Below, in pieces: positions 1,102 through 31,890 of a DNA stretch of 64,000 bases. A program made the translations under genes and the position numbers. The notes under the pieces are model-generated. The model was not told the DNA's origin, ran no database searches, and saw only the letters and a list, made by a program, of their open reading frames with translations. This DNA is from an uncultured Actinomycetota bacterium. Its GTDB lineage: Bacteria; Actinomycetota; Geothermincolia; Geothermincolales; RBG-13-55-18. The stretch spans positions 9,586 through 73,585 of the forward strand of contig CAZEAU010000010.1 in assembly GCA_964510515.1 (NCBI GenBank), read 5' to 3'. How positions within the stretch are numbered: the stretch's first letter is position 1; every line of letters begins with the position of its first letter.

Positions 1102-2838
1102 TCACCCCTTCGCGCGCCCCTCCCACAACCAGGCCAGGAGCTCCTCCTCGCCTAAGGAGTTGAGCACGTCCCCCCGGCCCAGCCAGCCCCGCCTCGCCAT
1201 GGCCACCCCGTAGAGCATGAAGGCCAGGTGCTCGGGGCGGTGGGCGTCGGTGCCGATGGAGATCTTCACTCCCGCCTCCCTGGCCTCGGCGAGATGTTCG
1301 TCCCGGAGGTCGAGGCGGTCGGGGAAGGCGTTGAGCTCCAGCGCCGTACCGGTGTCGCGTGCCTCTCGCATGAGCGCTTGCAGATCCACATCGTAGGGCG
1401 GGCGCTGCCCCAGCAGCCGCCCCGTGGGGTGGGCGATGACCTTCACGTGGGGGTTGCGCATGGCGGCCACCATGCGGCGGGTGATGTGCGCGCGCTCCTG
1501 TTTGAAGCCTCCGTGTACGGAGGCAATGACCACGTCCAGCAGGGAGAGCATGCCGTCGTCGTAGTCGAGACCGCCCTCGTTGCCTATATTGAGCTCCGTC
1601 CCCGCCAGCAGGGTGACGGGCGATGTGCCGGAGGCGTTCATCTTCCTTATCTCCTCCACCTGCCTCTCCAGCCTCTCCCTCTCCAGGCCCCGCGCCACCT
1701 TCAGGTCAGCGGCGTGGTCGGTGATGGCCAGGTAGCGATAACCCAGCCTCTCCGCCGCCTCCCGCATCTCGGCCAGGGAGGCGGTGCCGTCGCTGGCGGC
1801 GGTATGCGCGTGCAGGTCTCCCCGGATGTCGCCGCGCGCGAGCAGCACGGGCAGGTCGCCGGAGAGGGCCGCCTCGACCTCGCCGCGGTTCTCCCTCATC
1901 TCCGGCGGCGGGCAGGCCATCCCCAAAGCCGCGTACACCCCCTCCTCCGTCTCGCCCGCGATGCGCCTGTCGCCGGACACGCGAAAGACGCCGTACTCGT
2001 TCACCTTCAGCCCCTTCTTCTTGGCAACCTCCCTCACCCGCACGTTATGGGACCGGGAGCCGGTGAAGTACTGCAGGGCGGCCCCGAACTCCGCCGGGAG
2101 GACCACCCTCAGGTCCACCTGCAGGCCGCCGCGGGTCAGCACCGAGCTTTTGGTGTCCCCGCGCAGCAGGACCCGGTCCACGTTGGGGAGGGTGCAGAAG
2201 GCGTCCATGACCGCGGCGGCGGCGTCCGACGCGACCAGGATATCAATATCGCCGACGGTCTCCTTCATGCGGCGCAGGCTTCCCGCCGGGGAGAGGACGA
2301 GGCCGGGCATCCTCTCCCGCATCATCTCCGCGATATCCTCCTGCAGGCGGTTGGCCTCGTGCAGCAGCAGGCGCCCCGAGGCCGCCTGCAGGTGCCCTAT
2401 GCCCTCGAGGATGTTCTTCTCCGCCTTGGGGCCGAGGCCGGGAAGTTCGGCGAGCAGGTGTTCGCGCGCGGCGGCGCGCAGCTCGTCGATGGTGCGCACC
2501 CCGAGTTCGTCGTAGATGAGCTTGACCCGCCGGGGGCCGAGACCGGGGACCTTGAGCAGGGAGATGAGCTCCAGCGGGACTTCCTTTTTGATCTCCTCGA
2601 GAGAGGATATCCGCCCCTCGCGCTTGAACTCGAGGATCTTCGCGGCCAGGGCCTCGCCTATGCCGGGATACTTACGCAGTTCTGCGGCCTCGTCCAGGAG
2701 CAGCATCTCCTCGCCGTGCGCCCTCACCACCTCGGCGGCGCGCTGGTAGGCGTTGACCTTGAAACGCACCTCGCCCTTTATCTCCGAGAGCTCAGCCAGG
2801 GTCTCGAAAGCCACGGCCAGCTCCTCGGCATCGCTCAC
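1102..2838 (-). CDS. polX: PolX-family DNA polymerase / 3'-5' exonuclease with C-terminal PHP domain
   Basis: N-terminal helix-hairpin-helix pol-beta-like region (MSDAEELAVAFETLAELSEIKGE...KVNAYQRAA) and PHP motifs (DLHAHTAASDG...AITDH). Length 578 aa. Confidence 0.85.
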   Translation of the reverse strand: MSDAEELAVAFETLAELSEIKGEVRFKVNAYQRAAEVVRAHGEEMLLLDEAAELRKYPGIGEALAAKILEFKREGRISSLEEIKKEVPLELISLLKVPGLGPRRVKLIYDELGVRTIDELRAAAREHLLAELPGLGPKAEKNILEGIGHLQAASGRLLLHEANRLQEDIAEMMRERMPGLVLSPAGSLRRMKETVGDIDILVASDAAAAVMDAFCTLPNVDRVLLRGDTKSSVLTRGGLQVDLRVVLPAEFGAALQYFTGSRSHNVRVREVAKKKGLKVNEYGVFRVSGDRRIAGETEEGVYAALGMACPPPEMRENRGEVEAALSGDLPVLLARGDIRGDLHAHTAASDGTASLAEMREAAERLGYRYLAITDHAADLKVARGLERERLERQVEEIRKMNASGTSPVTLLAGTELNIGNEGGLDYDDGMLSLLDVVIASVHGGFKQERAHITRRMVAAMRNPHVKVIAHPTGRLLGQRPPYDVDLQALMREARDTGTALELNAFPDRLDLRDEHLAEAREAGVKISIGTDAHRPEHLAFMLYGVAMARRGWLGRGDVLNSLGEEELLAWLWEGRAKG

Positions 2839-2994
2839 GACACCTCCACCTCCTCCCCTCCCCAGTATACCCGGATGGGGTCATGCCTTTATCTTTGGCG
2901 GCTCCGCTATCTTGCCTGTTCGCAGCGGGGGTTTTATCTCGGGCTTGCAAGACGTAGCCCCGCGGGAGCGGACATGCTCCCCGGGTGATGCAGG

Positions 2995-4371
2995 TCAAGT
3001 GACCCCATCCAGCCAGGCGCGGGCCTCGCGCAGGGCCTCATCGACCCTCCCGGGAGCGGTGCCGCCGGGCAGGTCCCTCGCCTCCACGCAGGCCTCCAGG
3101 GTGAGATGGCCGTATATGTCCTCCTCCACCAGCGGCTCCACGGCCTTGTACTCCTCGATCTCCAGGTCCTGCAGCGGGATGCCCCTCTGCAGGCAGGCGC
3201 GCACCAGCTTCCCCGCCGCCTCGTGCGCGCGCAGGAAGGGCACCCCCTTGCGCACCAGGTAGTCCGCGAGGTCGGTGGCGTTGGCGTATCCGACCCCGGC
3301 CAGCTCGCGCATGCGGCCGGGGCGGAAGGCCGCCGTGGCCAGGACGCGGGCGGTTATCTCGAGCATGGAGGAGAGCTGGTCCGTGGCGTCGAACGTCCCC
3401 TCCTTGTCCTCCTGCAGGTCGCGGTTGTAGGCCAGGGGGAGCCCCTTGAGCATGGTCATCGCCGCCACCAGGTGTCCGATCACCCGGCCCGACTTCCCCC
3501 TCACCAGCTCGGCCATGTCCGGGTTGGCCTTCTGGGGCATGATCGAGGAGCCGGTGGCATAGGCCTCGTCCAGGGCCAGGAAAGCGAAGGGGGGGCTGGA
3601 CCACAGCACCACCTCCTCCGCCAGGCGGCTGAGGTGCAGGGCGGTCACCGCGCAGGCGTAGAGGTGATCGGTGACGAAGTCGCGGTCCGACACCGCGTCC
3701 ATGGAGTTCGCGCTCACCTCCGCGAAGCCCAGCTCGTCGGCCATCCTCCGCCGGTCCAGGGGGAAGGTGACCCCCGCCAGCGCCCCGCTTCCCAGGGGGG
3801 AGCTGTCGAGGCGGCGGCGTGACTGCGCGAACCTCTCCGCGTCGCGCTTGAACATCTCGAAGTAGGCGAGCAGGTGATGGGAGAGCAGCACCGGCTGGGC
3901 CGGCTGCAGATGGGTGAAGCCGGGCATGATCACGCCCCGGCCCGCCTGCGCCTGTTCCAGCAGGGCGCGCATGAGCTCGAGCAGGCGCCGCTGGAGCTGA
4001 TCGCATGCGTCTTTGAGGAAGAGCCGCATGTCCGCCGCCACCTGGTCGTTGCGGCTGCGGCCCGCCCGCAGCCTGGCCCCGCTTTCCCCCACCCTCTCCA
4101 CCAGGGAGCGCTCCACCGCGCTGTGTATGTCCTCGTCATCGCGGAAGGGGAAGGACCCCTCCTCCATCTCCCGCCCCATCTCCCGCAGGGCGGAAACGAT
4201 CCTTTCCGCCTCCTCGGCGCTCAGCACGCCGCATCCCTCCAGGGCATGCGCGTGCGCCTCGCTCACGGCGAGATCATAGGGCGCCAGCCGCCGGTCGAAG
4301 GAGAGGGAGGCGCTGAAGGCGTGCGCGAGCCGCTCCGTCTCCTTCTCGAACCTGCCCCCCCATAGTCTCAT
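2995..4371 (-). CDS. argH: argininosuccinate lyase
   Basis: MRLWGGRFEKE... start and full-length 458-aa lyase-1/fumarase family signature, at the end of the arg operon. Confidence 0.95.
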   Translation of the reverse strand: MRLWGGRFEKETERLAHAFSASLSFDRRLAPYDLAVSEAHAHALEGCGVLSAEEAERIVSALREMGREMEEGSFPFRDDEDIHSAVERSLVERVGESGARLRAGRSRNDQVAADMRLFLKDACDQLQRRLLELMRALLEQAQAGRGVIMPGFTHLQPAQPVLLSHHLLAYFEMFKRDAERFAQSRRRLDSSPLGSGALAGVTFPLDRRRMADELGFAEVSANSMDAVSDRDFVTDHLYACAVTALHLSRLAEEVVLWSSPPFAFLALDEAYATGSSIMPQKANPDMAELVRGKSGRVIGHLVAAMTMLKGLPLAYNRDLQEDKEGTFDATDQLSSMLEITARVLATAAFRPGRMRELAGVGYANATDLADYLVRKGVPFLRAHEAAGKLVRACLQRGIPLQDLEIEEYKAVEPLVEEDIYGHLTLEACVEARDLPGGTAPGRVDEALREARAWLDGVT

Positions 4372-10516: not shown

Positions 10517-11554
10517 TCACGGAAATATCCCCGGGGCCCGCAGCCCCAGTTCCTCGTCCCATCCCCGCATGATGTTCATGCACTGCAGCGCCTGCCCCGA
10601 CGCTCCTTTGACCAGGTTATCTATGGCCGCGGCCACGCAGAGCATTCCCTTCTCCCGCTCCAGGTGCCTGCCCAGGTGGCAGTAGTTGCTCCCGCACACC
10701 GCTTTCGTCTCCGGGAAGACCCCGTCCTCAAGGATGACCACGAACGTGGAATCGGCGTAGAAACGGCGGTAGAGCGCATCCACCTCCTGCGCCGATGCAT
10801 CATCCCCGCAGCGCACGTAGCAGGTGGCCAGTATGCCGCGGCTCATGGGGGCAAGGTGGGGGACGAAGGTCAGCGCCACCCGCGCGCCCGCAAGAGCGGA
10901 GAGCGCCTCCTCCATCTCCGGGGTATGGCGGTGATTCCCCACGGCGTAGGGTTTCACGCTCCCCTCCGCCTGGGGAAAGTGAGCGGCCGGCGAGAGCGAG
11001 CGCCCCGCTCCGGACACCCCGGACTTGGCATCGATGACCGCGCCGTCCACTCCCGCCCACCCCGCGGCGGCAAGAGGCGCGAGAGCCAGGAGCGCCGCGG
11101 TGGGATAGCAGCCCGGCACGGCGATGAGCCTGGCCCCGGCTATCTCCCCGCGTTTTATCTCCGGCAGGCCGTAGACCGCCTCGGCCAGGAGGTGGGGCGA
11201 GGTGTGCTCCAAGCCGTAGCTGCGCGCGTATGCCCCGGCATCGTGCAGGCGGTAATCCGCCGAGAGGTCGATAACCTTCGCCCCCCCCTCCAGGAGCCGC
11301 GGCACCACGCGCATCGACTCGCCGTGCGGCAGGGCCACGAAGAAGAGGTCAGCCCGGGCCAGCGCCTCCCGCGCGTCGAAGGGCTGATAGCGCATCGTTC
11401 CATATCCATGCAGATTGGGGTAGAGCGCAGCCACCTTTTCTCCCGCATGGCTATGAGCGCTGACATAGACGGCCTCCGCCTCGGGGTGGCCACCCAACAG
11501 CCTCATCAACTCGGCGCCGGTATACCCCGACGCGCCCACTATCCCCACTTGCAT
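10517..11554 (-). CDS. argC: N-acetyl-gamma-glutamyl-phosphate reductase
   Basis: MQVGIVGASGYTGAEL... NAD-binding start, 345 aa, catalytic Cys region (VAVPGCYPTAALLALAPL). Confidence 0.9.
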   Translation of the reverse strand: MQVGIVGASGYTGAELMRLLGGHPEAEAVYVSAHSHAGEKVAALYPNLHGYGTMRYQPFDAREALARADLFFVALPHGESMRVVPRLLEGGAKVIDLSADYRLHDAGAYARSYGLEHTSPHLLAEAVYGLPEIKRGEIAGARLIAVPGCYPTAALLALAPLAAAGWAGVDGAVIDAKSGVSGAGRSLSPAAHFPQAEGSVKPYAVGNHRHTPEMEEALSALAGARVALTFVPHLAPMSRGILATCYVRCGDDASAQEVDALYRRFYADSTFVVILEDGVFPETKAVCGSNYCHLGRHLEREKGMLCVAAAIDNLVKGASGQALQCMNIMRGWDEELGLRAPGIFP

Positions 11555-11579
11555 GTCCTGTTCCTCACTTACTCAACAA

Positions 11580-11615
11580 CATAATATGCACATAATTGCA
11601 TATCTATGTAATGGA
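11580..11615 (-). promoter_or_regulatory. putative arg operon promoter with palindromic ARG-box-like operator (TATGCA-N6-TGCATA) upstream of argC
   Basis: AT-rich 87-nt gap between the holA stop and argC start. Perfect inverted repeat TATGCACATAATTGCATA at ~11585..11602, with TTGACT and -10-like hexamers on the minus strand and a GAGGAA RBS before ATG. Confidence 0.45.
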
Positions 11616-11641
11616 GTCAATGCCTTTCCAGCGCCTGCCGC

Positions 11642-12661
11642 TCAGTCGCCTCGCCACAGGGCGCGGGCCGCGAAATCCCTTCCCGCCGCCAGGGCCGACA
11701 GCCCCGATACCGCCGCCTCCGCGGCGAAGCCATCCTCCAGGGCGCCGGTCTTGACGCCTGCCTCCACCCCGACCAGCAGGGAGAGGGCCTCGCGCAGCGC
11801 CTCCTCGCTCAAGCGGGCCGACTGCGGCCTGAGCTTCTTGGCCACCATCCAGGCCTGGTTCTTCGCCAGCCCCAGGCGGTCGCTCATCTCCGCCTCGCGC
11901 AGGCCCTCCTCGCGCAGGGCGCGGTAGAGGAGCAGCAGGCGGAAGCGCCTGGCCAGGGCGCTGAGGACGAAGGTGGTCCTCTCTCCCTGCTGCAGCAGGC
12001 GCCGCAGCAGCTTCAGGGCCTGTTCGACATCGCCAAGGGCCACCCGGTCGACGAGCTCGAAGACCGACCTCTCGGCCGACGGCGTCACCAGCGGCACCAC
12101 ATCGCCCAGGTCCACCTCTTCTCCGCCCTCGTGATACAGGCTCACCTTCTCCACCGCGGCCTCGATGGCCAGGAGGTCGTCCCCCAGCGCTTCATGCATG
12201 TAGGCGATGGCCTTGCCCGAGACCTGCATCCCCCGCCGCTTGAAGCGTGTCCGTATCCACCCCGGTATCTGGCCCCTGCGCTTGCTCACCTCGCGCAATC
12301 CTCCCCTCTTCTCCACCGCCTTCACCAGCGGGGAGGCCGCCTTGAGGCCCACCGCAGCCAGGATGAGCGTGGAGGTCTCGGAGGGGTCCTCGAGGTAGCG
12401 CGCAAGCTTCTTAACCTCCGCGGCGCTGAGCTCCTGGGCCTCCTTGACGATCACCCACCTGCGCTCGGAGCCGAAGGGAAGCGTCTCCGCCGCCTGCAGG
12501 ATGTCGTCGATGGAGTCGCCGCCGGCCTCAAAGAGGTCCAGGTTGAACTCGGCCTCGCCGCTTTGAGCCACCCTGGCCCGCGCCTTCTTCAGCTCCTCCT
12601 CGACCAGGAAGCGGTGATTGCCGAAAATGAGATATACCACGCTTGCCGCGGGTTGATGCAT
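11642..12661 (-). CDS. holA: DNA polymerase III delta subunit
   Basis: 339 aa with the HolA family N-terminus (VYLIFGNHRFLVEEE...) and a conserved position downstream of comEC. Confidence 0.8.
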   Translation of the reverse strand: MHQPAASVVYLIFGNHRFLVEEELKKARARVAQSGEAEFNLDLFEAGGDSIDDILQAAETLPFGSERRWVIVKEAQELSAAEVKKLARYLEDPSETSTLILAAVGLKAASPLVKAVEKRGGLREVSKRRGQIPGWIRTRFKRRGMQVSGKAIAYMHEALGDDLLAIEAAVEKVSLYHEGGEEVDLGDVVPLVTPSAERSVFELVDRVALGDVEQALKLLRRLLQQGERTTFVLSALARRFRLLLLYRALREEGLREAEMSDRLGLAKNQAWMVAKKLRPQSARLSEEALREALSLLVGVEAGVKTGALEDGFAAEAAVSGLSALAAGRDFAARALWRGD

Positions 12662-22192: not shown

Positions 22193-23485
22193 TCATTTCA
22201 TTGCGGTCGGCTTCTTCGCCGGCTTCGCGGCCGGCTTCTTGGCCTTCTTCGCGGCCGCCCCGGCCTTCGCCGCGGGCTTCCTCCCGCCAAGCGACCCCGC
22301 CGCCTTCTTCGCCGCCGACCCCGCCGCCTTCTTCGCGCGCTTCGGCTTCGCCTCCTTCTCCTCCAGCAGGCTACTGGCGGGCATGCCGCACACCTGCTTG
22401 CCGTCCCTGCCCTCGGGGCAGTGCTCGATGAGGAAGCGCGACACGGCGGGGGCCAGCTCCTTCTGAGAGCGGGAGCTGACATAGATGCCTATATGCCCGC
22501 CCGGAAAGCTGTACAGCGTCTTGTCCTCGCTGCCCACCAGGTCGTTTAAGGGTATGGAGGAGGCGGGCGGCACCAGGTGGTCCTCGGTGGCATAGATATT
22601 GAGCAGGGGCATGGTGATGTTCGCGAGGTCCACGCGCCGCTCCCCGATCATCAGCTCCCCTTTCACCAGCTTGTTCTCCTGGTAGAGGTCCTTGAGGAAC
22701 TTGCGATAAGCCTCGCCGGCCTGCGCCGGGCTGTCGAATATCCACTTCTCCATGCGCACGAAATTGGCCACCGTGGCCGGATCGTCCAGGTTGTCCATGA
22801 GGCCCACGTACTTATCCACCATGAGCTGGAAGGGCTTGAGCATGAGGAAACCCACGTTCATGAACTCGCCCGGGATGATGCCCATGGTGTCCACCATGTT
22901 GTCGATGTCCATGTGCTGGCTCCACACGTTGAGCAAGCCGTCCGTGGTCTGGAAATCCACCGGGGCGACCATGGTGATGAGGTTGCGTATCTTCTCCGGG
23001 TAGAGGGCGGAATAGATGATGCTGAAGGTCCCGCCCTGGCATACGCCGAGCAGGTTGATCTGTTCGCACCCGCTGCGCTCGCGCACGAAATCGACGCAGC
23101 CGTCGAGGTAGACGTCGATATAGTCCTCCATGGTGACGTAGCGGTCACCGTGGTCGGGATACCCCCAGTCGATGATATAGATGTCCAGCCCCTGGCCGAG
23201 CAGGTTGCGGATGAGGCTGCGGTCCGACTGCAGGTCCATCATGTACTGCCGGTTGACCAGGGCGTAGCAGATGAGGATGGGGGTGGGGCAGGCAAGAGCC
23301 TCGCCCGGGAGGTAGTGGTAGAGCTTCATCTTGTCCTCTTCGAAGACCAGCTCCTTGGGGGTCGGCTCCACCTCGACGTCGCTGATGGTGGTGAGTATCT
23401 CGGTGCCCTTGACCAGCTTGCGGTTTATGTCCTCCAGCTCCTGCACGAAGAAGCCGGGGTCCATGAATTCTCTCAGCATGCTCAT
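22193..23485 (-). CDS. phaC: class III poly(3-hydroxyalkanoate) synthase PhaC with a ~75-aa Lys/Ala/Pro-rich C-terminal tail
   Basis: Very close to Allochromatium-type PhaC (ICYALVNRQYMMDLQSDRS...DWGYPD...lipase box GVCQGG...MEKWIFDSPAQAGE...FPGGHIGIYVS). Starts at MSMLREF with a GGAGGAGGG RBS. The tail EKEAKPKRAKKAAGSAAKKAAGSLGGRKPAAKAGAAAKKAKKPAAKPAKKPTAMK is absent from canonical PhaC. Confidence 0.85.
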   Translation of the reverse strand: MSMLREFMDPGFFVQELEDINRKLVKGTEILTTISDVEVEPTPKELVFEEDKMKLYHYLPGEALACPTPILICYALVNRQYMMDLQSDRSLIRNLLGQGLDIYIIDWGYPDHGDRYVTMEDYIDVYLDGCVDFVRERSGCEQINLLGVCQGGTFSIIYSALYPEKIRNLITMVAPVDFQTTDGLLNVWSQHMDIDNMVDTMGIIPGEFMNVGFLMLKPFQLMVDKYVGLMDNLDDPATVANFVRMEKWIFDSPAQAGEAYRKFLKDLYQENKLVKGELMIGERRVDLANITMPLLNIYATEDHLVPPASSIPLNDLVGSEDKTLYSFPGGHIGIYVSSRSQKELAPAVSRFLIEHCPEGRDGKQVCGMPASSLLEEKEAKPKRAKKAAGSAAKKAAGSLGGRKPAAKAGAAAKKAKKPAAKPAKKPTAMK

Positions 23486-24600
23486 CCCTCCTCCCCCGCT
23501 CCCGTGAGCTCCTTGACCTCCGCCTTCAGCGCGCGCACATCGCGCTTCAGGCGGTCCACCGCCTTGTAGAGGTGGTCCATCTCCGAGCGGTTGGGAAAGG
23601 GCAGCTCCTTGGTGGCTTCCTCCACGTAGGCCTGGAAGTCGCGCCGGAACTGCATGCCCTTGTCCACGAGCTGTCCCTGCAGGCGGGAGAACTCCTCGGT
23701 ACGGAAGAGATCGATGTACAGCTCCTCGCTCGTCTCCCACCACAGGCGGTAGAGGTCGCGGAAGGACATGGGCTCCGCCGTGCCCTCCGCCTGCAGTGAG
23801 CCCAGTTTCCGCTGCAACACCTCGAATGACCTGGCGCCCGCCCCCTGCAGCGCGGCGTAGAACTCCGAGAGGACGATGTTGAACTCCGCGAGCGAGTCCA
23901 CGGTATAGCGCAGCTTCTCCGCCGCCTCACGGTAATAACCCATGGCCGGGGCGCGCAGCAGGCGGCCGAAGCTCTCCTCGTAGGCCTTCTTCCAGGCCCC
24001 GTAGGCCTCCACCGTGCCCTCGGGGGAGAGCTTCTCCATGCTCATGGCGCGGTCCACCATACGGCGTCCGTATTCGTACCAGGGCGACCACAGGTGCACG
24101 AGCAGCCCGGAGGCGAGGAGGGGGATCTCGCCGTCGTAGAGCTCGGCTATCCACTGCAGCTGGGGGGGCAGCGCGGGCGCGAACACCTTCTGCACGATCT
24201 CCCGGTACTGCCCCGACCACTTCTCCAGCACCTCTTTGACGGCGTTGAAATCGTACTCCCCGCCCTCGCCGGCGGCCTTGCGGTAGGCCTCGAACATCTC
24301 CACCCACATGGCATGGAGTCGCGCATACACGTCCGCGGCCTGAAACATCTTGGCGTACGCGTCCGGGCCGATGCCGCCCGCGGGCGGGGTGAACCTCGCC
24401 GTCATCTCCTGCACGGAATCCATCCACCTGCGGTAGAGCTCGCTGGCGTCGGGCTCCGGCCTGCCGTCCGGCCTCTCCCCTCCCTGGCCCCACCCTCCGG
24501 CCATACGCGTCCAGGCGTCCATCCATCCCTTGAACATCTCCGCCTGGGCTTCCTGCCACTTCTTCCACACATCCGAGTGGCTATCGGTCCTCTCCGGCAT
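23482..24600 (-). CDS. phaE: class III PHA synthase subunit PhaE
   Basis: 372 aa, Trp-rich. Conserved blocks versus A. vinosum PhaE (LRAPAMGYYREAAEKL..., ...FRTEEFSRLQGQLV..., ...FPNRSEMDHLYKAVDRLKRDVRALKAEVKEL). Its stop overlaps the phaC start (ATGA). Confidence 0.8.
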   Translation of the reverse strand: MPERTDSHSDVWKKWQEAQAEMFKGWMDAWTRMAGGWGQGGERPDGRPEPDASELYRRWMDSVQEMTARFTPPAGGIGPDAYAKMFQAADVYARLHAMWVEMFEAYRKAAGEGGEYDFNAVKEVLEKWSGQYREIVQKVFAPALPPQLQWIAELYDGEIPLLASGLLVHLWSPWYEYGRRMVDRAMSMEKLSPEGTVEAYGAWKKAYEESFGRLLRAPAMGYYREAAEKLRYTVDSLAEFNIVLSEFYAALQGAGARSFEVLQRKLGSLQAEGTAEPMSFRDLYRLWWETSEELYIDLFRTEEFSRLQGQLVDKGMQFRRDFQAYVEEATKELPFPNRSEMDHLYKAVDRLKRDVRALKAEVKELTGAGEEG

Positions 24601-24621
24601 GGGTCATCTCCTTCTACGCGC

Positions 24622-24891
24622 CTACTCCTTCGCCAGCAGCTCCTCCATCTTGCGCAACCCCTCCTCGAGGTTGCGGCGGAACTCCTCGCGTCCCTTGCGC
24701 ATGTTCTCCAGCCACTCCTGCAGGACCTTCTCTCCCTCCTTCTGGAGATCTCCGCCCTGGTCCAGCAGCGTCTTCCACAGTTTCTCCGTCTGCTCCTGCA
24801 CCGAATTCATGGCATCAAAGGACATGAGCATACCGGAGCGCATGCCCTCCAGGACCGTCTTCTGCATCGTCTTCGCATCCATCTCCCTCAC
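24622..24891 (-). CDS. phasin-like small coiled-coil protein (PHA granule-associated / regulator candidate)
   Basis: 89 aa, highly charged alpha-helical (EKLWKTLLDQGGDLQKEGEKVLQEWLENMRKGREEFRRNLEEGLRKMEELLAKE), 21 nt upstream of phaE. GTG start with G-rich RBS. Confidence 0.5.
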   Translation of the reverse strand: MREMDAKTMQKTVLEGMRSGMLMSFDAMNSVQEQTEKLWKTLLDQGGDLQKEGEKVLQEWLENMRKGREEFRRNLEEGLRKMEELLAKE

Positions 24892-25131
24892 CCCTTTCCC
24901 CGATCGAAGCCTGTTTTACTCTATGATTCCTTTCCGGGCCGGCCCGTAAACATCTTCGCTGGGCCCGTGCAGACGCATGCGCGCCCGCCCATCAGCATGC
25001 ATCGGCTCGGCACCCCTCCCCCTTCAACCCTCTCCCCCGCCGCCGCGCACGGGAGCGCATGCGCCGCGCCCGCGGTGTATAATCTTGACATCACCCCGTC
25101 GGCTTGGCACGGCTCGAACAGGAGGGAACGC

Positions 25132-26133
25132 ATGAACGGAGAAAACCTCTACGAGAAGCTGTCGGAACGCATACTCACCAAGGGGAGCAGGTTCGTGCCG
25201 GACCTCTTCCGCATGGTCGCCGACGAGGAGGAGGCGCGCATCATGCTCGCCACGCCCGGCACGGCGGAGGAGCTGGCCGCCAGGCTCGATTGCGCCGTGG
25301 GGGAGGTGGAGGAGAAGCTCGCCACGCTGTACCGCAAGGGGCTCATCTTCAAATCGGACAAGCCCCAGGGCACCCTGTACCGCATGGTGCGCGACATCAC
25401 CCAGTTCCACGACGCCACCATCCTCTGGGAGGGCGCAAGCCGGGAATACCTCGACCTCTGGAAGCGACAGACCCGGGAGGAGCTGCCCGCGTATATCAAC
25501 ATGGTGAGCATGATCGCCCCCAAGCCCTTCACCCGGGTGGTGCCCGTGAACCAGCCGGTGGAGGCGCGCCAGAGCATACTCGCCTTCGAGGACGTCGAGC
25601 GCATGCTGCGCGATGCGGGCAGGCTCGCGGTGGCCAGATGCACCTGCCGCCTCGTGGACGGTGCCTGCGGGAAGCCCCTCGAGGTATGCCTGCAGCTGGG
25701 CAGGGGGGCCGACTATGCCATCGACCGCGGCAGCGGCCGCGAGGTGACCTTTGAGGAAGCCCTGGATATCATCCACATGGCGGAGGAAGCGGGGCTGGTC
25801 CACGTGGCCATGAACAAGGCCTACGGCAGCAATATCATCTGCAACTGCTGCGGGGACTGCTGCATAGCCTTCGGGCTGCCCATACCCTCCAGCGCCATCG
25901 TCGACCCCAGCCGCTTCCTGGCGGTGGTGGACGGGGAGTCCTGCAACGGCTGCGCCACCTGCGTCGAGCGCTGCCTCTTCGAGGCCATCGCCATGGAGGA
26001 GCTCGGCGGGGGAGAGGTGGCTATGATCGCCGCGGAGAGATGCATGGGCTGCGGGCTCTGCCAGGTCACCTGCCCCGAGGAAGCCATCTCCATGCGGGCG
26101 GTACGCGAGGAGTCCTTCGTCCCCGACCTCTGA
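25132..26133 (+). CDS. 4Fe-4S ferredoxin-domain protein with additional Cys-rich motifs
   Basis: Starts MNGENLYEKL with an AGGAGGGA RBS. Two CX2CX2CX3C(P) motifs (CNGCATCVERC, CMGCGLCQVTCP), plus CTCRLVDGAC and CNCCGDCC clusters. The upstream half of track ORF 24094..26133 is antisense to phaE. Confidence 0.6.
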   Translation: MNGENLYEKLSERILTKGSRFVPDLFRMVADEEEARIMLATPGTAEELAARLDCAVGEVEEKLATLYRKGLIFKSDKPQGTLYRMVRDITQFHDATILWEGASREYLDLWKRQTREELPAYINMVSMIAPKPFTRVVPVNQPVEARQSILAFEDVERMLRDAGRLAVARCTCRLVDGACGKPLEVCLQLGRGADYAIDRGSGREVTFEEALDIIHMAEEAGLVHVAMNKAYGSNIICNCCGDCCIAFGLPIPSSAIVDPSRFLAVVDGESCNGCATCVERCLFEAIAMEELGGGEVAMIAAERCMGCGLCQVTCPEEAISMRAVREESFVPDL

Positions 26134-26461: not shown

Positions 26462-27310
26462 CTATACGTTCAGCCACACCGCAGCATTGGTGATGCAGTA
26501 TTCCTCCGGGCGCTCCTTGGTGGTGCAGCGGAAGACGACCTTGTCGTCCGCCTCCTTCCACATCTGGGTGACGATGGTGTCTCCGGGCCACACCGGGCGG
26601 CTGAAACGGACCTTGATGGCCTTGAACTTGGCCGGGTCGTTGTCGCAGTACTGGCGCAGCACGGCGCGCCCCGCGAGTCCGAAGGTGCACAGCCCGTGCA
26701 GTATGGGACGGTCGAACCCGGCCATGGCCGAGAAGTTCGGGTCCACGTGCAGCGGGTTGTAGTCGCCGGAGAGGCGATAGATCATGGCCTGGGTGATGAG
26801 GGTGGGCGTCTCCACCACCGCGTCGGGGTCGCGCTCCGGGGGCTCGTTGCCCGGATCGGGTCCGCGCTCGCCGCCGAACCCTCCCTCGCCGCGGATGAAG
26901 CTGGAGAACTTGTTGTAGAAGACCACGTCCCCGGCCTCGTCGACGGTGTCGGCGTCCAGCTCGATCACGGCGCCCTTGGTCTTGTCCCACACCGCGGCTA
27001 TTTTCGGCTTGCTCGTGAGCTTGCCACTCGTGGGGATGGGCTTGCGAACCTCCAGGTACTGCTCGCCGTGAACCAGCATGACCAGGTTGATGTCCACCCC
27101 CTCCACCGCCACCAGGCCCATGAGGGCCGGGAAGGGCGGGACGACCCCGAAGGTGGGCAGGGCCATCAGGCCGTTCTCGTACACGAACTTGAGCTCGTCC
27201 GCTTCGTAGCCGGCTCCGATCCCCAGGGCGTAGAGGATAACGTCCCGGGTGGTGAAGTCGAAGTCGAGCGGCGGCAGCTCTTTTCCTACCACGGACAGAT
27301 CGATGGGCAT
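26462..27310 (-). CDS. MaoC-like (R)-specific enoyl-CoA hydratase (MFE-2 hydratase-2 domain; PhaJ-like)
   Basis: Double hot-dog fold, 282 aa, with the hydratase-2 motif region (YRLSGDYNPLHVDPNFSAMAGFDRPILHGLCTFG). Confidence 0.8.
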   Translation of the reverse strand: MPIDLSVVGKELPPLDFDFTTRDVILYALGIGAGYEADELKFVYENGLMALPTFGVVPPFPALMGLVAVEGVDINLVMLVHGEQYLEVRKPIPTSGKLTSKPKIAAVWDKTKGAVIELDADTVDEAGDVVFYNKFSSFIRGEGGFGGERGPDPGNEPPERDPDAVVETPTLITQAMIYRLSGDYNPLHVDPNFSAMAGFDRPILHGLCTFGLAGRAVLRQYCDNDPAKFKAIKVRFSRPVWPGDTIVTQMWKEADDKVVFRCTTKERPEEYCITNAAVWLNV

Positions 27311-27348
27311 CTTATCACCCCTTCATTCCGTAATGACGCTTGCGGCCA

Positions 27349-28263
27349 TCAGGTAAGGTTCATCTTGCCCAGGATGAGACCGGCGTGCTCGGTGGCGCCT
27401 CCCACCGTCTGGGCTCCCTCCAGGCTGGTTATCTTGTCGATGTTCTCGTCGATCATCTCCAGGGTGATGGGCTCCTTCTTGACGTCGAAGAGCACCCCCG
27501 GCCCCTCCATGAAGGCGGTGCGGCTGAAATAGCCTCCGCCGGCCACGAAGATGCACCCGGAGAAGCTGTTCTTCTCGGAGCAGGCCCAGCCGACGATGGG
27601 GGATACGTACTCAGGCTTGAGCACCTCCAGCATCTGCGGGGGCATCACCGTCGCGGTCATGCGCGTCCCGGCGACGGGGAGGATGGCGTTGGCCAGGATG
27701 TTATACTTGGCGCCCTCCTGCTTGAGGACGTGCATGAGTCCGACGATGCCCATCTTGGCCGCCCCGTAGTTGGCCTGCCCGAAGTTGCCGTATACGCCGG
27801 CCCCCGAGGTAGCGGCGATGATGCGGCCGTAGCTGTTCTCGCGCATGTGGGGGAAAGCGGCCTTGCAGCAGAAGAAGGTGCCGTTGAGGTGCACGGAGAT
27901 GACCTTCTCGTAGTCCTCCATCTCCATCTTGATGAAGCTCTTGTCGCGCAGGATGCCGGCATTGCTGATGAGGATGTCGATCTTGCCGAAAGAGTCCAGG
28001 GCCGTCTGGATGATGTTCGAGGCCCCTTCCCAGTCGGCGACGCTGTCGAAGTTGGGAACCGCCTCTCCCCCGGCGTCCTTGATCTCCTTACAGACCTCCT
28101 CCGCCGCGGTGTGCCCCGAGCCGGTGCCGTCGAAGGCGCCCCCCAGGTCGTTGACCACGACCTTGGCCCCGCGGCTGGCAAGGAGCAAGGCGTATTCCCT
28201 ACCCAGGCCGCCGCCGGCCCCGGTCACTACTGCGACGCGGTCATCGAATCTTACCTCCGCCAT
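27349..28263 (-). CDS. SDR-family (3R)-hydroxyacyl-CoA dehydrogenase (MFE-2 / HSD17B4 dehydrogenase-domain homologue)
   Basis: MAEVRFDDRVAVVTGAGGGLGREYALLLASRGAKVVVNDLGG...NAGILRD...YGRIIAATSGAGVYGNFGQANYGAAK aligns closely with the N-terminal dehydrogenase domain of peroxisomal multifunctional enzyme 2. AAGGAGAAGG RBS. Confidence 0.8.
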   Translation of the reverse strand: MAEVRFDDRVAVVTGAGGGLGREYALLLASRGAKVVVNDLGGAFDGTGSGHTAAEEVCKEIKDAGGEAVPNFDSVADWEGASNIIQTALDSFGKIDILISNAGILRDKSFIKMEMEDYEKVISVHLNGTFFCCKAAFPHMRENSYGRIIAATSGAGVYGNFGQANYGAAKMGIVGLMHVLKQEGAKYNILANAILPVAGTRMTATVMPPQMLEVLKPEYVSPIVGWACSEKNSFSGCIFVAGGGYFSRTAFMEGPGVLFDVKKEPITLEMIDENIDKITSLEGAQTVGGATEHAGLILGKMNLT

Positions 28264-28778
28264 AGACCTTCTCCTTTCCTTCCTCGGGGGTGCGCCCCCC
28301 ACGCTGTTTCCTGTCTCGCCTGCACCCAGCCCGCCATCGCGAGCAAGGCCGACGCTGAGTTGATGGCCCTGTTAGAACACGATACCCGCCGCCCGGGTGG
28401 CCCTATCATTATATACCCGATCCTACAACCCGATCCCGCCTGGCTTGCTTCCGCCGACGCCGCAAGCTCCCGCCCGGCTTTTCGATATTACCATATCGCT
28501 GGGGCAATATCATACCCGCTGCCTCCGCGGGCGCGCCGACCCGCGTTCACCGCGGGCGCCCCCCGCCGCATGATCGATACCCGGCCCGCCGAAACGGCGC
28601 CTGAGCCCTGCCTCCGGGGCAGATCCGCCTTGCGCGCTGCGACCATATCCGGGCCGGCCGCGGCGGCAGCGGGCCTGTCTTGCAGCGTCCTTATGCTTCA
28701 TAATGTCTGGGGCGCCTGCCTTCCCCGCCGGGAGAGGGTGGGCGCGGCAGACATCCGCCGCACACCCGGGAGGGAGAT

Positions 28779-30233
28779 ATGCCGGCCATGAAGGTCGTGG
28801 TCATCGGGTCCGGCCCGGGAGGGTCCGCGTGCGCGGCCCTCCTGGCGCATGCGGGCCACGAGGTCACGCTGCTGGAGAGAAACCCGTTTGCGGGAGGGAA
28901 ATGCTCCTCCCTGGCCCGCGGCGGCTACGCGCTCGACGGCGGCGTGCACATGTTCGGTCGCGGGCCGCGGGGCCCCTTTGGCGACATCGCCCGCATCCTC
29001 GGGGAGGGCCCGGAATGGTGCGCGACCACTCCCTCCTTCACCCTCAGCCTGTCGGGAAAGGGCCGGCTGGAGATGGCCTCCTCCATCCTCCATCCTCTCA
29101 ACGCGTTCAGCTTCCTCAAGGGGCGCCTCAGGGGATGGCAGAACATGGGCTGGGCGGCCACGGCCGCCCACGCCATGCGCTCTTTTGGGCCCGCCGCCCT
29201 GCTCTCCCTGCACAGGAAGCTCAACCACCGCCGCTATCCCCTCTACGGCGAGCTCCAGGACGTGAGCGTGCGGGATTTCATGCTGCGGGTCTCCGGCGCC
29301 GACGACTTTTTGCGCGCCTTCCACGCCCAGGCCATGCTGACCATGGCGCTCCCCTGGCACCGCGCCAGCATGGGCGAATTCGCCTATATCCTCGGCACCA
29401 CCATGCACGCATCCTATCTCTGCTATCCGCGCGGGGGGTGCGGAGCCATACCCGCATCCTTTTTGCGCGCGCTGGCCGGCAGGGGGGGCGTTGTCCGCCT
29501 TGGCTGCGAGGCGGCGAGGATAGAGGTCGAGGGGGGAGGGGTGCGGGGCGTCATCACCTGCGGGGGGGAGCACCTCCCCGCCGACGTGGTGGTCTCCAAT
29601 GCCGGGCTGCGCCGCAGCATCGAACTTGCCGGCCGGGACGCCTTTCCGCGCGATTACCTGGAGAGGGCGGACGCCATGCGCGACTCCGAGGCCTTCGTCG
29701 CCCTGAGGTTCACCCTGGAGCGCAAGCTCTCCTCCCTGCGCACCCCCTGCCTGCTGCACATGCCCTCCCTGCCCCCGCAGAGCATGTTCGACTACCTCGA
29801 GGACGGCAGCGTGCCCGAAGACCTCTTCCTGTTCGTCACCGCCCCCGGCAAATGGGACCCCGCCCTGGTCCCGCCGGGAGGGGACAGCCTCATCGTCGGG
29901 GTCCCCGCGCCCAGCCGGCTCGACCGCGGGGCGCAGTGCGCGGCGCTTCTGCACAGGGCGCAGGATATCGCCCTGGACCTCTTCCCCGAGATCGCCTCCT
30001 CGGCCTCGGGGGTGGAGAGAGTCCTCGGGGCCGACATCTCCGCTCTCAGCGGCAGGAACTCGGGCGACTGTATCGGCCTGGCCCAGGAGGTTGGACAGAG
30101 CGGCCGCCTGCGCCCCGCGGCGGACACTCCGCTGCGCGGACTGTACCTGGTGGGCGCGGATGCCGGCGGCCGTGGCATCGGCACCGAGATGGCTGCGGAC
30201 AGCGCGCTGCGCCTTTACCACCTGCTGAAATGA
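28779..30233 (+). CDS. FAD/NAD(P)-dependent oxidoreductase, phytoene-desaturase (CrtI)-like family
   Basis: Rossmann start VVVIGSGPGGSACAALLAHAGHEVTLLERNPFAGGKCSS and length 484 aa are typical of CrtI/retinol-saturase-like flavoproteins. GGGAGGGAG RBS. Confidence 0.7.
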   Translation: MPAMKVVVIGSGPGGSACAALLAHAGHEVTLLERNPFAGGKCSSLARGGYALDGGVHMFGRGPRGPFGDIARILGEGPEWCATTPSFTLSLSGKGRLEMASSILHPLNAFSFLKGRLRGWQNMGWAATAAHAMRSFGPAALLSLHRKLNHRRYPLYGELQDVSVRDFMLRVSGADDFLRAFHAQAMLTMALPWHRASMGEFAYILGTTMHASYLCYPRGGCGAIPASFLRALAGRGGVVRLGCEAARIEVEGGGVRGVITCGGEHLPADVVVSNAGLRRSIELAGRDAFPRDYLERADAMRDSEAFVALRFTLERKLSSLRTPCLLHMPSLPPQSMFDYLEDGSVPEDLFLFVTAPGKWDPALVPPGGDSLIVGVPAPSRLDRGAQCAALLHRAQDIALDLFPEIASSASGVERVLGADISALSGRNSGDCIGLAQEVGQSGRLRPAADTPLRGLYLVGADAGGRGIGTEMAADSALRLYHLLK

Positions 30234-30387
30234 GCCGATCCGGGCCCCCCTCCGCCCTTCGCGGGGACGCGGCCGCAGCCCGCCCGCTGACCGCGCCCCC
30301 CGCGCCCCCTTGCCCACCGCGCGGGGATGAACATAGAATCATACCCAGTGGCTGGCAAGGTCGGATTCTCTACGGAGGTATGCCTGC

Positions 30388-31110
30388 ATGGGTCTCTTCG
30401 ATCAGCCCCTGGCAGAGATCAGGGCCCGCATAGAGGGCTGGTACCGCGATGGGACGGCGAGGGAACTGCCCTTCACCCCGGTGCTGCCCCACGCGGGTGA
30501 TGCCCAGGTCATATTGAGCGAGGATACCGGCCTGGAGTTGGGGAACCCGGGCACGGCCTCGCGCTCACTGCTGCTTTGGGATGCGGAGGAAACCCTGCAT
30601 GACGGGCGCATCACCCTGGTGGGGCCCGATTTCACGCAGGCTCCCTCCTCCAGCCTGCCCTTCGCACAGGTGATCATAGTGAGCGGGGATTTCAGCGACG
30701 AGTACGACTGCTACCGCGACCTGCGTGATGCCATCTACAACGTGCGGCTGCGGGGCTTCATGACCCGCGTCTTTCCGGGGCGGCAGTCCATATGGTGCCG
30801 CATAAGCAGGGAGGCGCTGGCCGGCGGCTTCAGCGCTCAGCTCCTGGGCAGCGCCCTCATGCAGTCCCTCAAGGGACTCGACTTCGTGCGCGGCGTCGAG
30901 GTGCTCTTCGTCACCGCGGGCAAGGAAGAGGTGGACGGGCTCGCGAGCGCGGCGGACAAGGTCATGGACATCGTCGAAGCCCTGATCAAGATGTACGAGG
31001 AGATGAACTTCGACTGCGAGGAGTGCGAATACGTGGAAGTCTGTGACGAGGTGGTGGAATTGAGGCGTATACGCGAAAAGCTCCAGGCGAAGCGGGAAGG
31101 CGGCGGCTGA
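30388..31110 (+). CDS. hypothetical protein with C-terminal CxxCx5C motif, translationally coupled to the CooC-like ATPase
   Basis: 240 aa, no recognised family. C-terminus ...MNFDCEECEYVEVCDEVVEL. The stop lies 3 nt before the next start. Confidence 0.5.
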   Translation: MGLFDQPLAEIRARIEGWYRDGTARELPFTPVLPHAGDAQVILSEDTGLELGNPGTASRSLLLWDAEETLHDGRITLVGPDFTQAPSSSLPFAQVIIVSGDFSDEYDCYRDLRDAIYNVRLRGFMTRVFPGRQSIWCRISREALAGGFSAQLLGSALMQSLKGLDFVRGVEVLFVTAGKEEVDGLASAADKVMDIVEALIKMYEEMNFDCEECEYVEVCDEVVELRRIREKLQAKREGGG

Positions 31111-31113
31111 GCC

Positions 31114-31890
31114 ATGTCCGACGGGGATCGCGGCGGCGCGGGCAAGGTCATCGCCGTATGCGGCAAGGGCGGGGTCGGCAAGACGACCGTCTCCGCGCTG
31201 CTATCGCGCCTCCTGCGCGAGGAGCGGACCTCCCGGGCGCTGGTGGTCGACGCCGACCCGGCCATAGGGCTTGGTTTGGCCCTGAACCGTTTTCCCGAGC
31301 GCACGGTCAACGACGTCCGCAAGGAGATCATCACCGCGGTACGCGAGCGCTCCACCGACAGCCTGGACCTCGCCGCCTCCGTCGATTACAAGATGATGGA
31401 GATAGTCATGGACAGCGGGAACCTCGGCTTCCTCTCCGTGGGACGCCCCGAGGAGGAGGGTTGTTACTGCCAGCTCAACACCCTGCTCAGGGAGGCCATA
31501 GAGACCCTCTCCTCCCACTTCGACATCACCCTTATCGACGCGGAAGCCGGGGTGGAACAGGTGAACCGCCGCGTCATGCGCTCGGTTTCCCACCTGCTGC
31601 TGGTCAGCGATACCACCGTGAAAGCGCTGCGCGTCGCCGAGTCCATCGCCAAGGTGGCCGACGAGGCGGTCGATTACAGGCGTATCGGGCTCATCGTCAA
31701 CCGCGCCCGCGGCGGGGATGAGGCACGGCGCCTCGCCGCACAGGGGGAGCTGCCCTTGCTGGGCTGGATCCCGGAAGACGATACGGTGAGGGAATACGAC
31801 TCCGAGGCCCGGGGCTTTCTGGACATTCCCGCCTGCCCCGCCCTGGAAGCGGTGAGGGCGCAGATTCTCGAGGGCGGTTTCCTCTCCTAG
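31114..31890 (+). CDS. CooC/AcsF-type MinD-family P-loop ATPase (deviant Walker A, CxC metal motif)
   Basis: VIAVCGKGGVGKTT deviant Walker A and a conserved GCYC motif as in CO-dehydrogenase nickel-insertion ATPase CooC. 258 aa. Confidence 0.7.
   Translation: MSDGDRGGAGKVIAVCGKGGVGKTTVSALLSRLLREERTSRALVVDADPAIGLGLALNRFPERTVNDVRKEIITAVRERSTDSLDLAASVDYKMMEIVMDSGNLGFLSVGRPEEEGCYCQLNTLLREAIETLSSHFDITLIDAEAGVEQVNRRVMRSVSHLLLVSDTTVKALRVAESIAKVADEAVDYRRIGLIVNRARGGDEARRLAAQGELPLLGWIPEDDTVREYDSEARGFLDIPACPALEAVRAQILEGGFLS

Follow-up and report, generated by a model that had tools for sequence, protein, structure and literature searches.

To our knowledge, acetyl-CoA synthase (ACS) and the CooC/AcsF ATPases have so far been known only from the metabolism of CO and acetyl-CoA. 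CooC1 of Carboxydothermus hydrogenoformans (PDB 3kje) is the nickel chaperone for the C-cluster of CO dehydrogenase (CODH). In ACS itself the complete ligand set of the A-cluster, C-x2-C-x8-C-x9-C plus a Cys-Gly-Cys, lies on the A3 domain, and the second Cys of the CxxC bridges the cubane to nickel. AcsF (CooC2) is described, in a later paper's account of the original work, as inserting nickel in an ATP-dependent manner into the A-cluster of ACS (Gregg et al. 2016, cited in PMC10134865). We have examined a pair of genes that recalls AcsF and ACS, encoded in a 64,000-nucleotide stretch of DNA from an uncultured Actinomycetota bacterium (assembly GCA_964510515.1, contig CAZEAU010000010.1, positions 9,586 to 73,585 of the forward strand; the whole stretch is referred to below as the window). 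The upstream gene (30388..31110, + strand) encodes a 240-aa protein that is a truncated paralog of ACS and CdhC, retaining the A2 domain and, of the A-cluster motif, the first CxxC, and which we call mini-ACS. The downstream gene (31114..31890, + strand), which lies 3 nt 3′ of the mini-ACS stop codon, encodes a 258-aa protein that is, by its sequence, a CooC/AcsF-type ATPase.

The likeness to AcsF and ACS is that a CooC-type ATPase, bearing a deviant Walker A together with a CxC motif, is encoded beside an ACS-family protein, and that this protein keeps the A2 domain and a CxxC. The differences lie in the partner and in its surroundings. Mini-ACS is without A1, most of A3, the fourth cubane Cys, and the Cys-Gly-Cys; no genes for CODH, a corrinoid protein, or a methyltransferase lie near the pair; and the context of the pair is instead an operon of HGD-D and BcrAD genes or, in the window, a group of genes for acyl-CoA and polyhydroxyalkanoate (PHA) metabolism. 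Relative to CooC1, the ATPase has the same fold and an aligned Walker A and CxC, and CooC1 is its best sequence match in the PDB, but identity in the structural alignment is only about 22%, no cooS lies near the ATPase gene, and the orthologous group to which the ATPase belongs is tied to mini-ACS and not to CODH. In M. maripaludis, too, a second CooC paralog with a CxC motif (CooC2) is paired with a small protein (DUF166), but that pair sits beside, and is cofit with, the CODH/ACS operon (bioRxiv 10.1101/2024.03.05.583561), whereas here the small protein is an ACS fragment and the operon is of the HGD-D/BcrAD type.

That operon has its own relatives, namely the class I (Bzd/Bcr-type) benzoyl-CoA reductases (BCR), the 2-hydroxyacyl-CoA dehydratases (HAD), and the double-cubane proteins. 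In its ancestral form it encodes BzdN/DCCP/HadC-like and HadB-like HGD-D proteins together with two BzdQ/BcrA/D-like ATPases, whereas the HGD-D/BcrAD genes are absent from the window itself. In the literature that we searched, no BCR or HAD system is described with an ACS fragment and a CooC ATPase, and our full-text search found no account of a mini-ACS/CooC-like module. The parts belong to known families; it is their combination and their operon context that are new.

The two proteins and their motifs

An earlier note on this DNA, made from the letters of the sequence, had described two coupled open reading frames (ORFs) separated by 3 nt, together with a number of motifs, and all of these are present. 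The junction reads TGA-GCC-ATG, with one codon between the two same-strand ORFs. Both ORFs have a coding-type codon-position pattern, with a third-position GC content of 0.84 for mini-ACS and 0.86 for the ATPase, the GC content of the genome being 67-70%. We consider both to be real genes because each has hundreds of homologs and because their ratios of nonsynonymous to synonymous substitution (dN/dS), taken up below, are low at 0.13-0.26.

The earlier note could place the upstream protein in no recognisable family, a statement overturned by a Pfam search, in which CdhC (PF03598) matches residues 41-177 with E = 7.7e-11 and 42.5 bits, against a gathering cut-off of 24. The note had also raised the possibility that a profile search would assign this protein to a known family of CODH-maturation factors; a known family was indeed found, but it marks the protein as derived from ACS and not as a CODH-maturation factor. 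Residues 41-177 (30508..30918, + strand) correspond to the middle, CoA-binding domain of ACS, aligning to residues 333-482 of M. thermoacetica AcsB, residues 279-449 of C. autoethanogenum ACS, and residues 17-184 of archaeal CdhC. The NCBIfam matches fall on the same middle (A2) domain (bacterial AcsB 308-464, archaeal CdhC 18-184), and mini-ACS scores 34-48 bits with the full-length models TIGR00316, NF003379, and NF040764, which have cut-offs of 356-800. Sequence searches of the PDB returned ACS/CdhC chains only. An AlphaFold2 model (pLDDT 88.8) gave the same answer in Foldseek, where the only matches are to ACS structures (E about 1e-10), followed by a gap down to noise.

The relationship extends past the A2 domain into the beginning of the A-cluster motif. 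Genuine N-terminal fragments of CdhC, bearing the A-cluster motif (...VFYGCTLCQSFAPTSVCVITPDRIALCG...SCGC), were recovered, and an hhalign comparison of the mini-ACS family with genuine CdhC has a probability of 98.5% and matches the first CxxC of the CdhC sequence FYGCTLCQSF to C210 and C213. In other words, the CxxC of the tri-Cys motif of mini-ACS, C210-x2-C213-x5-C219 (31015..31044, + strand; within NFDCEECEYVEVCDE, residues 207-221), is derived from the start of the A-cluster cubane motif. The three cysteines are present in every one of the 82 family members compared, which represent several phyla, and W64, Y106, R127, W136, R138, E205, D209, E214, and Y215 are conserved in at least 95% of the same sequences. 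What mini-ACS has is nevertheless not the complete ligand set: only the first CxxC aligns, and the third Cys follows after five residues, not eight. Since the protein ends at residue 240, 21 residues after C219, the fourth cubane Cys and the Cys-Gly-Cys (SCGC) nickel site are absent.

One of the conserved residues bears on ligand binding. Trp136 (30793..30795, + strand) is the equivalent, by alignment to 6ytt_A, of ACS Trp405, which stacks on the adenine of acetyl-CoA, a ligand bound mainly by A2 (bioRxiv 10.1101/2024.08.05.606187). It seems probable that mini-ACS retains the ability to bind a CoA moiety.

The ATPase carries the sequence CGKGGVGKTT at residues 16-25, which includes the deviant Walker A GKGGVGKT (residues 17-24; 31162..31185, + strand), a motif that is invariant or at least 95% conserved, including among a set of 65 orthologs. 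Its second signature is the CxC metal motif Cys117-Tyr-Cys119 (31462..31470, + strand), part of the GCYC at residues 116-119. The call of a CooC-type protein made in the earlier note, and the CxC on which it depended, both withstood careful alignment: GCYC aligns with the QCYC of CooC1 3kje, at the position of CooC1 Cys112 and Cys114, and of the 65 orthologs, 64 retain C117 and all retain C119. CooC1 heads the PDB sequence matches with E = 1e-12 over residues 13-224, and MinD follows at 3e-11; McdA is found among the distant matches (E = 4e-4). Pfam assigns the protein to CbiA/AAA_31, no CooC-specific model appears among the Pfam and NCBIfam results, and the MinD and ParA models fall far under their cut-offs (63 bits against 201 in the case of MinD).

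Operon context and its loss in the window's clade

The mini-ACS family is not a peculiarity of one genome. It comprises at least 161 clusters at 50% identity (E < 1e-30), all of about 230-280 aa, and a scan of species-representative genomes found 80 loci, all of them in metagenome-assembled genomes (MAGs). These genomes belong to Actinomycetota (Candidatus Solincola, Geothermincola, Anoxymicrobiaceae), Bacillota, Thermodesulfobacteriota (Smithella, Syntrophaceae, Desulfobacteraceae), and a few other groups, and the habitats of the family are anoxic: digesters, peat, sediments, and hot springs. Synteny was mapped with tblastn and precomputed Pfam annotation. A CooC-like gene lies directly 3′ of mini-ACS in 74 of the 76 loci with enough downstream sequence, and the association holds in the reverse direction, in that the ATPase orthologs P0352 and P0386 each adjoin a mini-ACS. 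At 10813-12315 of locus L092, a 500-aa ORF stands where the CooC-like gene would be expected; in L056 the order is mini-ACS, BcrAD, BcrAD, CooC-like.

The pair is linked to a larger set of genes. Where at least 5 kb of upstream sequence is available, HGD-D and BcrAD genes are both found within 9 kb in 55 of 62 loci, and this is true across phyla. The canonical arrangement is an operon of 10-11 genes, tightly packed and often with overlapping start and stop codons, in which the pair occupies the 3′ end. Its 5′ part encodes two acyl-CoA dehydrogenase (ACAD) proteins and three unknown proteins of about 240, 200, and 500 aa, and its 3′ part two HGD-D proteins, an optional third, two BcrAD proteins, mini-ACS, and the CooC-like ATPase. 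The HGD-D and BcrAD products resemble BzdN, the double-cubane protein, HadB/C, and BzdQ/BcrA/D, none of them at a curated NCBIfam cut-off. Neither a ferredoxin gene in the Pfam-annotated canonical operons nor any CODH Pfam family in the Pfam-annotated loci was found. The canonical operon encodes an uncharacterised ATP-dependent member of the benzoyl-CoA-reductase/2-hydroxyacyl-CoA-dehydratase family.

The three unknown proteins are all-helical and free of Cys (in L011 at 1379-2104, 2101-2706, and 2713-4197; also in L009, L014, L029-L048, L071-L091, and L095), and they have no Pfam or NCBIfam match even at E = 5. The two small ones are paralogs with a common LDPE..WEDPE..P...N motif, and in the large one DFG and HxG motifs are conserved. 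A second set of HGD-D, HGD-D, and BcrAD genes is found in Thermodesulfobacteriota (Smithella, Desulfobacteraceae, and relatives), directly 3′ of the CooC-like gene, at about +1.5 to +6.5 kb from the start of mini-ACS (L062, L068, L073-L075, L077, L079, L080, L082, L084, L085, L087, and L090). Because this second set sits downstream, the pair in those loci is flanked by two BCR/HAD-like enzyme sets.

The window's clade, which we define as the loci with a mini-ACS at least 66% identical to that of the window, has departed from this arrangement by degrees. In L025-L028, AIM24, two HGD-D genes, and two BcrAD genes precede the pair. One BcrAD gene remains beside the two HGD-D genes in L015, and no BcrAD is detectable beside them in L006; L017, L019, L021, and L023 have a single BcrAD gene and nothing else of the set; L016, L018, and L022 have neither HGD-D nor BcrAD. 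In the window, a CrtI-like gene is directly 5′ of the pair. The flanking MaoC, short-chain dehydrogenase/reductase (SDR), CrtI-like, and acyl-CoA-ligase genes stay syntenic throughout this series. For both members of the pair dN/dS is 0.13-0.26, even between species that all lack neighbouring HGD-D/BcrAD genes, the ratios being rough as dS is near saturation. Because dN/dS is low despite the loss of the neighbours, the pair is being maintained and is not decaying. The clade lost its HGD-D/BcrAD genes from this site step by step, and the pair stayed intact under purifying selection, with dN/dS at about 0.15-0.2.

Proposed function and rival explanations

We suggest as the likeliest reading, by analogy with the action of AcsF on ACS, that the ATPase, acting as a dimer, spends ATP on the loading or assembly of a metal site at the tri-Cys motif of mini-ACS. 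The site might hold nickel, an Fe-S cluster with an open coordination position, or both. Mini-ACS would then bind the CoA moiety of a substrate or of a partner and act as an accessory to the HGD-D/BcrAD acyl-CoA radical enzyme, either as an electron carrier or in the handling of CoA esters; in the genome of the window, the partner enzyme would be encoded elsewhere. The earlier note had suggested that the upstream protein could be a client or adaptor; it is the likely client or partner of the ATPase, and a truncated ACS/CdhC homolog is the kind of client that one would expect an AcsF/CooC ATPase to have. The chain as a whole, in which the ATPase matures the metal site of mini-ACS and mini-ACS serves acyl-CoA radical enzymes, strikes us as about evenly balanced between right and wrong.

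Several points weigh against this proposal. The relation of maturase to client is drawn from analogy, and two loci, L092 and L093, have a mini-ACS with no CooC-like gene downstream. The fold of the ATPase does not separate it from NifH, BchL, MinD, or FleN: in Foldseek the top neighbours of its model (pLDDT 87.5) are BchL, FleN, FlhG, and NifH, and CooC1 comes twelfth, with a TM score of 0.72. Because the fold does not discriminate, the assignment to the CooC/AcsF subfamily rests on the sequence and on the CxC motif. No sequence similarity to A3 could be detected in the tail of mini-ACS past the CxxC (searched against the PDB on their own, the last 78 aa gave chance matches only), and model confidence there is about 66-76. 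Two residues proposed for acetyl transfer in ACS, Arg383 and His386 in the C. autoethanogenum numbering (bioRxiv 10.1101/2024.08.05.606187), are not kept in mini-ACS, which has L112 and A115 at those positions in an alignment-dependent comparison. Because the equivalent of Trp405 is kept and Arg383, His386, and the Cys-Gly-Cys are absent, mini-ACS looks like a CoA-binding A2 module with a three-Cys metal site, and not like a working ACS. Finally, no HGD-D or BcrAD gene is within reach of the pair in the window and in three sister species, and there the module must therefore work without a neighbouring partner; presumably it acts together with a partner whose gene lies elsewhere, or with other acyl-CoA enzymes encoded locally.

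It is possible that the ATPase is instead a redox or cluster carrier in the manner of NifH, BchL, or Mrp. An Fe-S cluster would be bridged by its two CxC motifs, and electrons or a cluster would pass to the tri-Cys motif of mini-ACS, which would in turn replace ferredoxin as the electron donor of BcrAD. The standing of BchL and NifH among the structural neighbours of the ATPase is in keeping with such a role, as is the lack of a ferredoxin gene in the annotated canonical operons, and the three cysteines of mini-ACS, together with the conserved D209 and E214, could hold a [4Fe-4S] or [3Fe-4S] cluster. However, in sequence the ATPase is closest to CooC1, and its CxC matches neither the way the cysteines are spaced in NifH nor the CxxC motif of Mrp. 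A CxC is typical of the nickel- and zinc-binding CooC proteins. Moreover, for ATP-coupled electron transfer two BcrAD ATPases are already at hand in the operon. We consider this explanation unlikely.

A second alternative is that the pair serves a canonical CODH/ACS encoded elsewhere in the genome, with mini-ACS as a nickel-delivery adaptor or assembly factor that works with a second CooC paralog. The case for it begins with the derivation of mini-ACS from ACS. The Wood-Ljungdahl pathway has been reported in Candidatus Solincola (PMC12917137; PMC7325909), which among named genera is the nearest to the window's relatives, and the CooC2 and DUF166 proteins of M. maripaludis, which are needed for CODH/ACS function, provide a precedent (bioRxiv 10.1101/2024.03.05.583561). 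The earlier note had called the ATPase an orphan on the ground that neither cooS nor acsB was nearby. At the site itself this holds: a Pfam scan of the 64-kb window, in which practically all large coding ORFs were covered, found neither cooS nor a full acsB/cdhC, and the A3 (A-cluster) region of ACS, used as a tblastn query, had no match in the window or in 94 related loci, so that a cooS or acsB gene hidden within the window is rejected. Beyond the site the term fits less well, given the pathway reported for Candidatus Solincola (PMC12917137). Against a service to CODH/ACS stand the absence of any A3-encoding sequence within about 10 kb of the pair in those 94 loci, the absence of CODH Pfam families from the annotated loci, and the position of the pair inside HGD-D/BcrAD operons across phyla, where start and stop codons often overlap. 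We judge such a service to be decidedly unlikely.

A bolder form of the metal-site proposal can be imagined, in which the two proteins share a split, A-cluster-like Ni-Fe-S site: mini-ACS would give the cubane-type CxxC...C ligands and a CoA-binding surface, and the CooC-like dimer would give a Cys-x-Cys in place of the missing Cys-Gly-Cys. We regard this as a long shot. Were it true, the benzoyl-CoA-reductase/dehydratase family of radical enzymes would gain, in the products of the HGD-D/BcrAD operons, its first nickel-dependent or organometallic member, and syntrophs and subsurface Actinomycetota might be home to new C-C or C-S chemistry of acyl-CoA compounds.

The chance that the pair is a functionless relic, decaying after the loss of its operon from the genome of the window, appears slight indeed. 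The stepwise losses in the clade, from two HGD-D and two BcrAD genes to one BcrAD gene and then to none, are what one would expect of a relic in the making, but both ORFs are intact with every family-invariant residue present, a promoter-like site and a ribosome-binding site lie upstream, and the dN/dS values, 0.13-0.2 even between species that all lack the neighbouring genes, lead us to reject it.

Scarcely credible, and likewise rejected, is the suggestion of the earlier note that the pair positions PHA granules in the style of ParA/MinD and by analogy with McdA/McdB, for although the window has PhaC/PhaE genes 6-8 kb upstream of the pair and the ATPase has weak MinD/ParA-family matches and the distant match to McdA (E = 4e-4), its MinD score is far below the cut-off, its CxC metal motif is invariant among orthologs, mini-ACS is a folded ACS A2 domain with invariant cysteines where an McdB-type adaptor would be disordered, the association of the pair across three phyla, among them Bacillota and Thermodesulfobacteriota, is with HGD-D/BcrAD operons, and PHA genes near the pair have been seen only in the window and in L007 and L008, the clade loci with Pfam annotation that far upstream, the other loci not having been searched for them.

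To return to the maturation of a metal site on mini-ACS, a stripped-down ACS domain and a maturase-type ATPase have been recruited into a different and widespread operon, an indication of a metallocofactor or accessory subunit, so far unrecognised, in the service of ATP-dependent radical acyl-CoA enzymes. The automatic labels "CO dehydrogenase/acetyl-CoA synthase beta subunit" and "CO dehydrogenase maturation factor," the latter being the JGI label on the ATPase orthologs, could mislead as to the capacity of MAGs for carbon fixation or CO oxidation. At 240 and 258 aa, the two proteins also form a small and tractable pair for the study of how CooC-type ATPases recognise their clients.

Signals and neighbouring genes in the window

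Upstream of mini-ACS, a consensus scan and direct reading of the sequence identified a promoter-like site, TTGCCC-18-TAGAAT (30310..30339, + strand), and a GGAGG that reads as a ribosome-binding site (30374..30378, + strand). Their position 5′ of mini-ACS suggests that the pair forms its own transcription unit here, although motifs of this sort are not evidence of function.

Among the products recognised by Pfam elsewhere in the window are those of arginine biosynthesis genes, ComEC, leucyl-tRNA synthetase (LeuRS), a major facilitator superfamily (MFS) transporter, ProA/ProB, and NadD, as well as RsfS, Obg, L21, RNase G, a radical-SAM protein, and the dcw/FtsZ cluster. Around the pair, the order is class III PhaC/PhaE, a ferredoxin-domain protein, a MaoC hydratase, an SDR, a CrtI-like FAD oxidoreductase, the pair itself, and a convergent acyl-CoA ligase.

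The gene directly 5′ of the pair (28779-30233, +) encodes an FAD oxidoreductase of the CrtI/phytoene-desaturase family that scores 112 bits against a family cut-off of 238; it keeps its position in the window's clade, with a dN/dS of about 0.25. At 26462-28302 (-), adjoining genes encode the MaoC-type hydratase, with multifunctional enzyme type 2 (MFE-2) hydratase-2 N-terminal and MaoC domains, and the SDR, and the two resemble a split multifunctional beta-oxidation enzyme. Together they could be a source of (R)-3-hydroxyacyl-CoA for the nearby PHA synthase. At 22193-24600 (-) and 24094-26133 (+), the class III phaC and phaE genes overlap as called, and a long ORF on the opposite strand has 4Fe-4S dicluster domains at its C-terminus only. 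Because the homolog in L007 is 333 aa long, the true start of this ferredoxin-like gene is probably near 25130.

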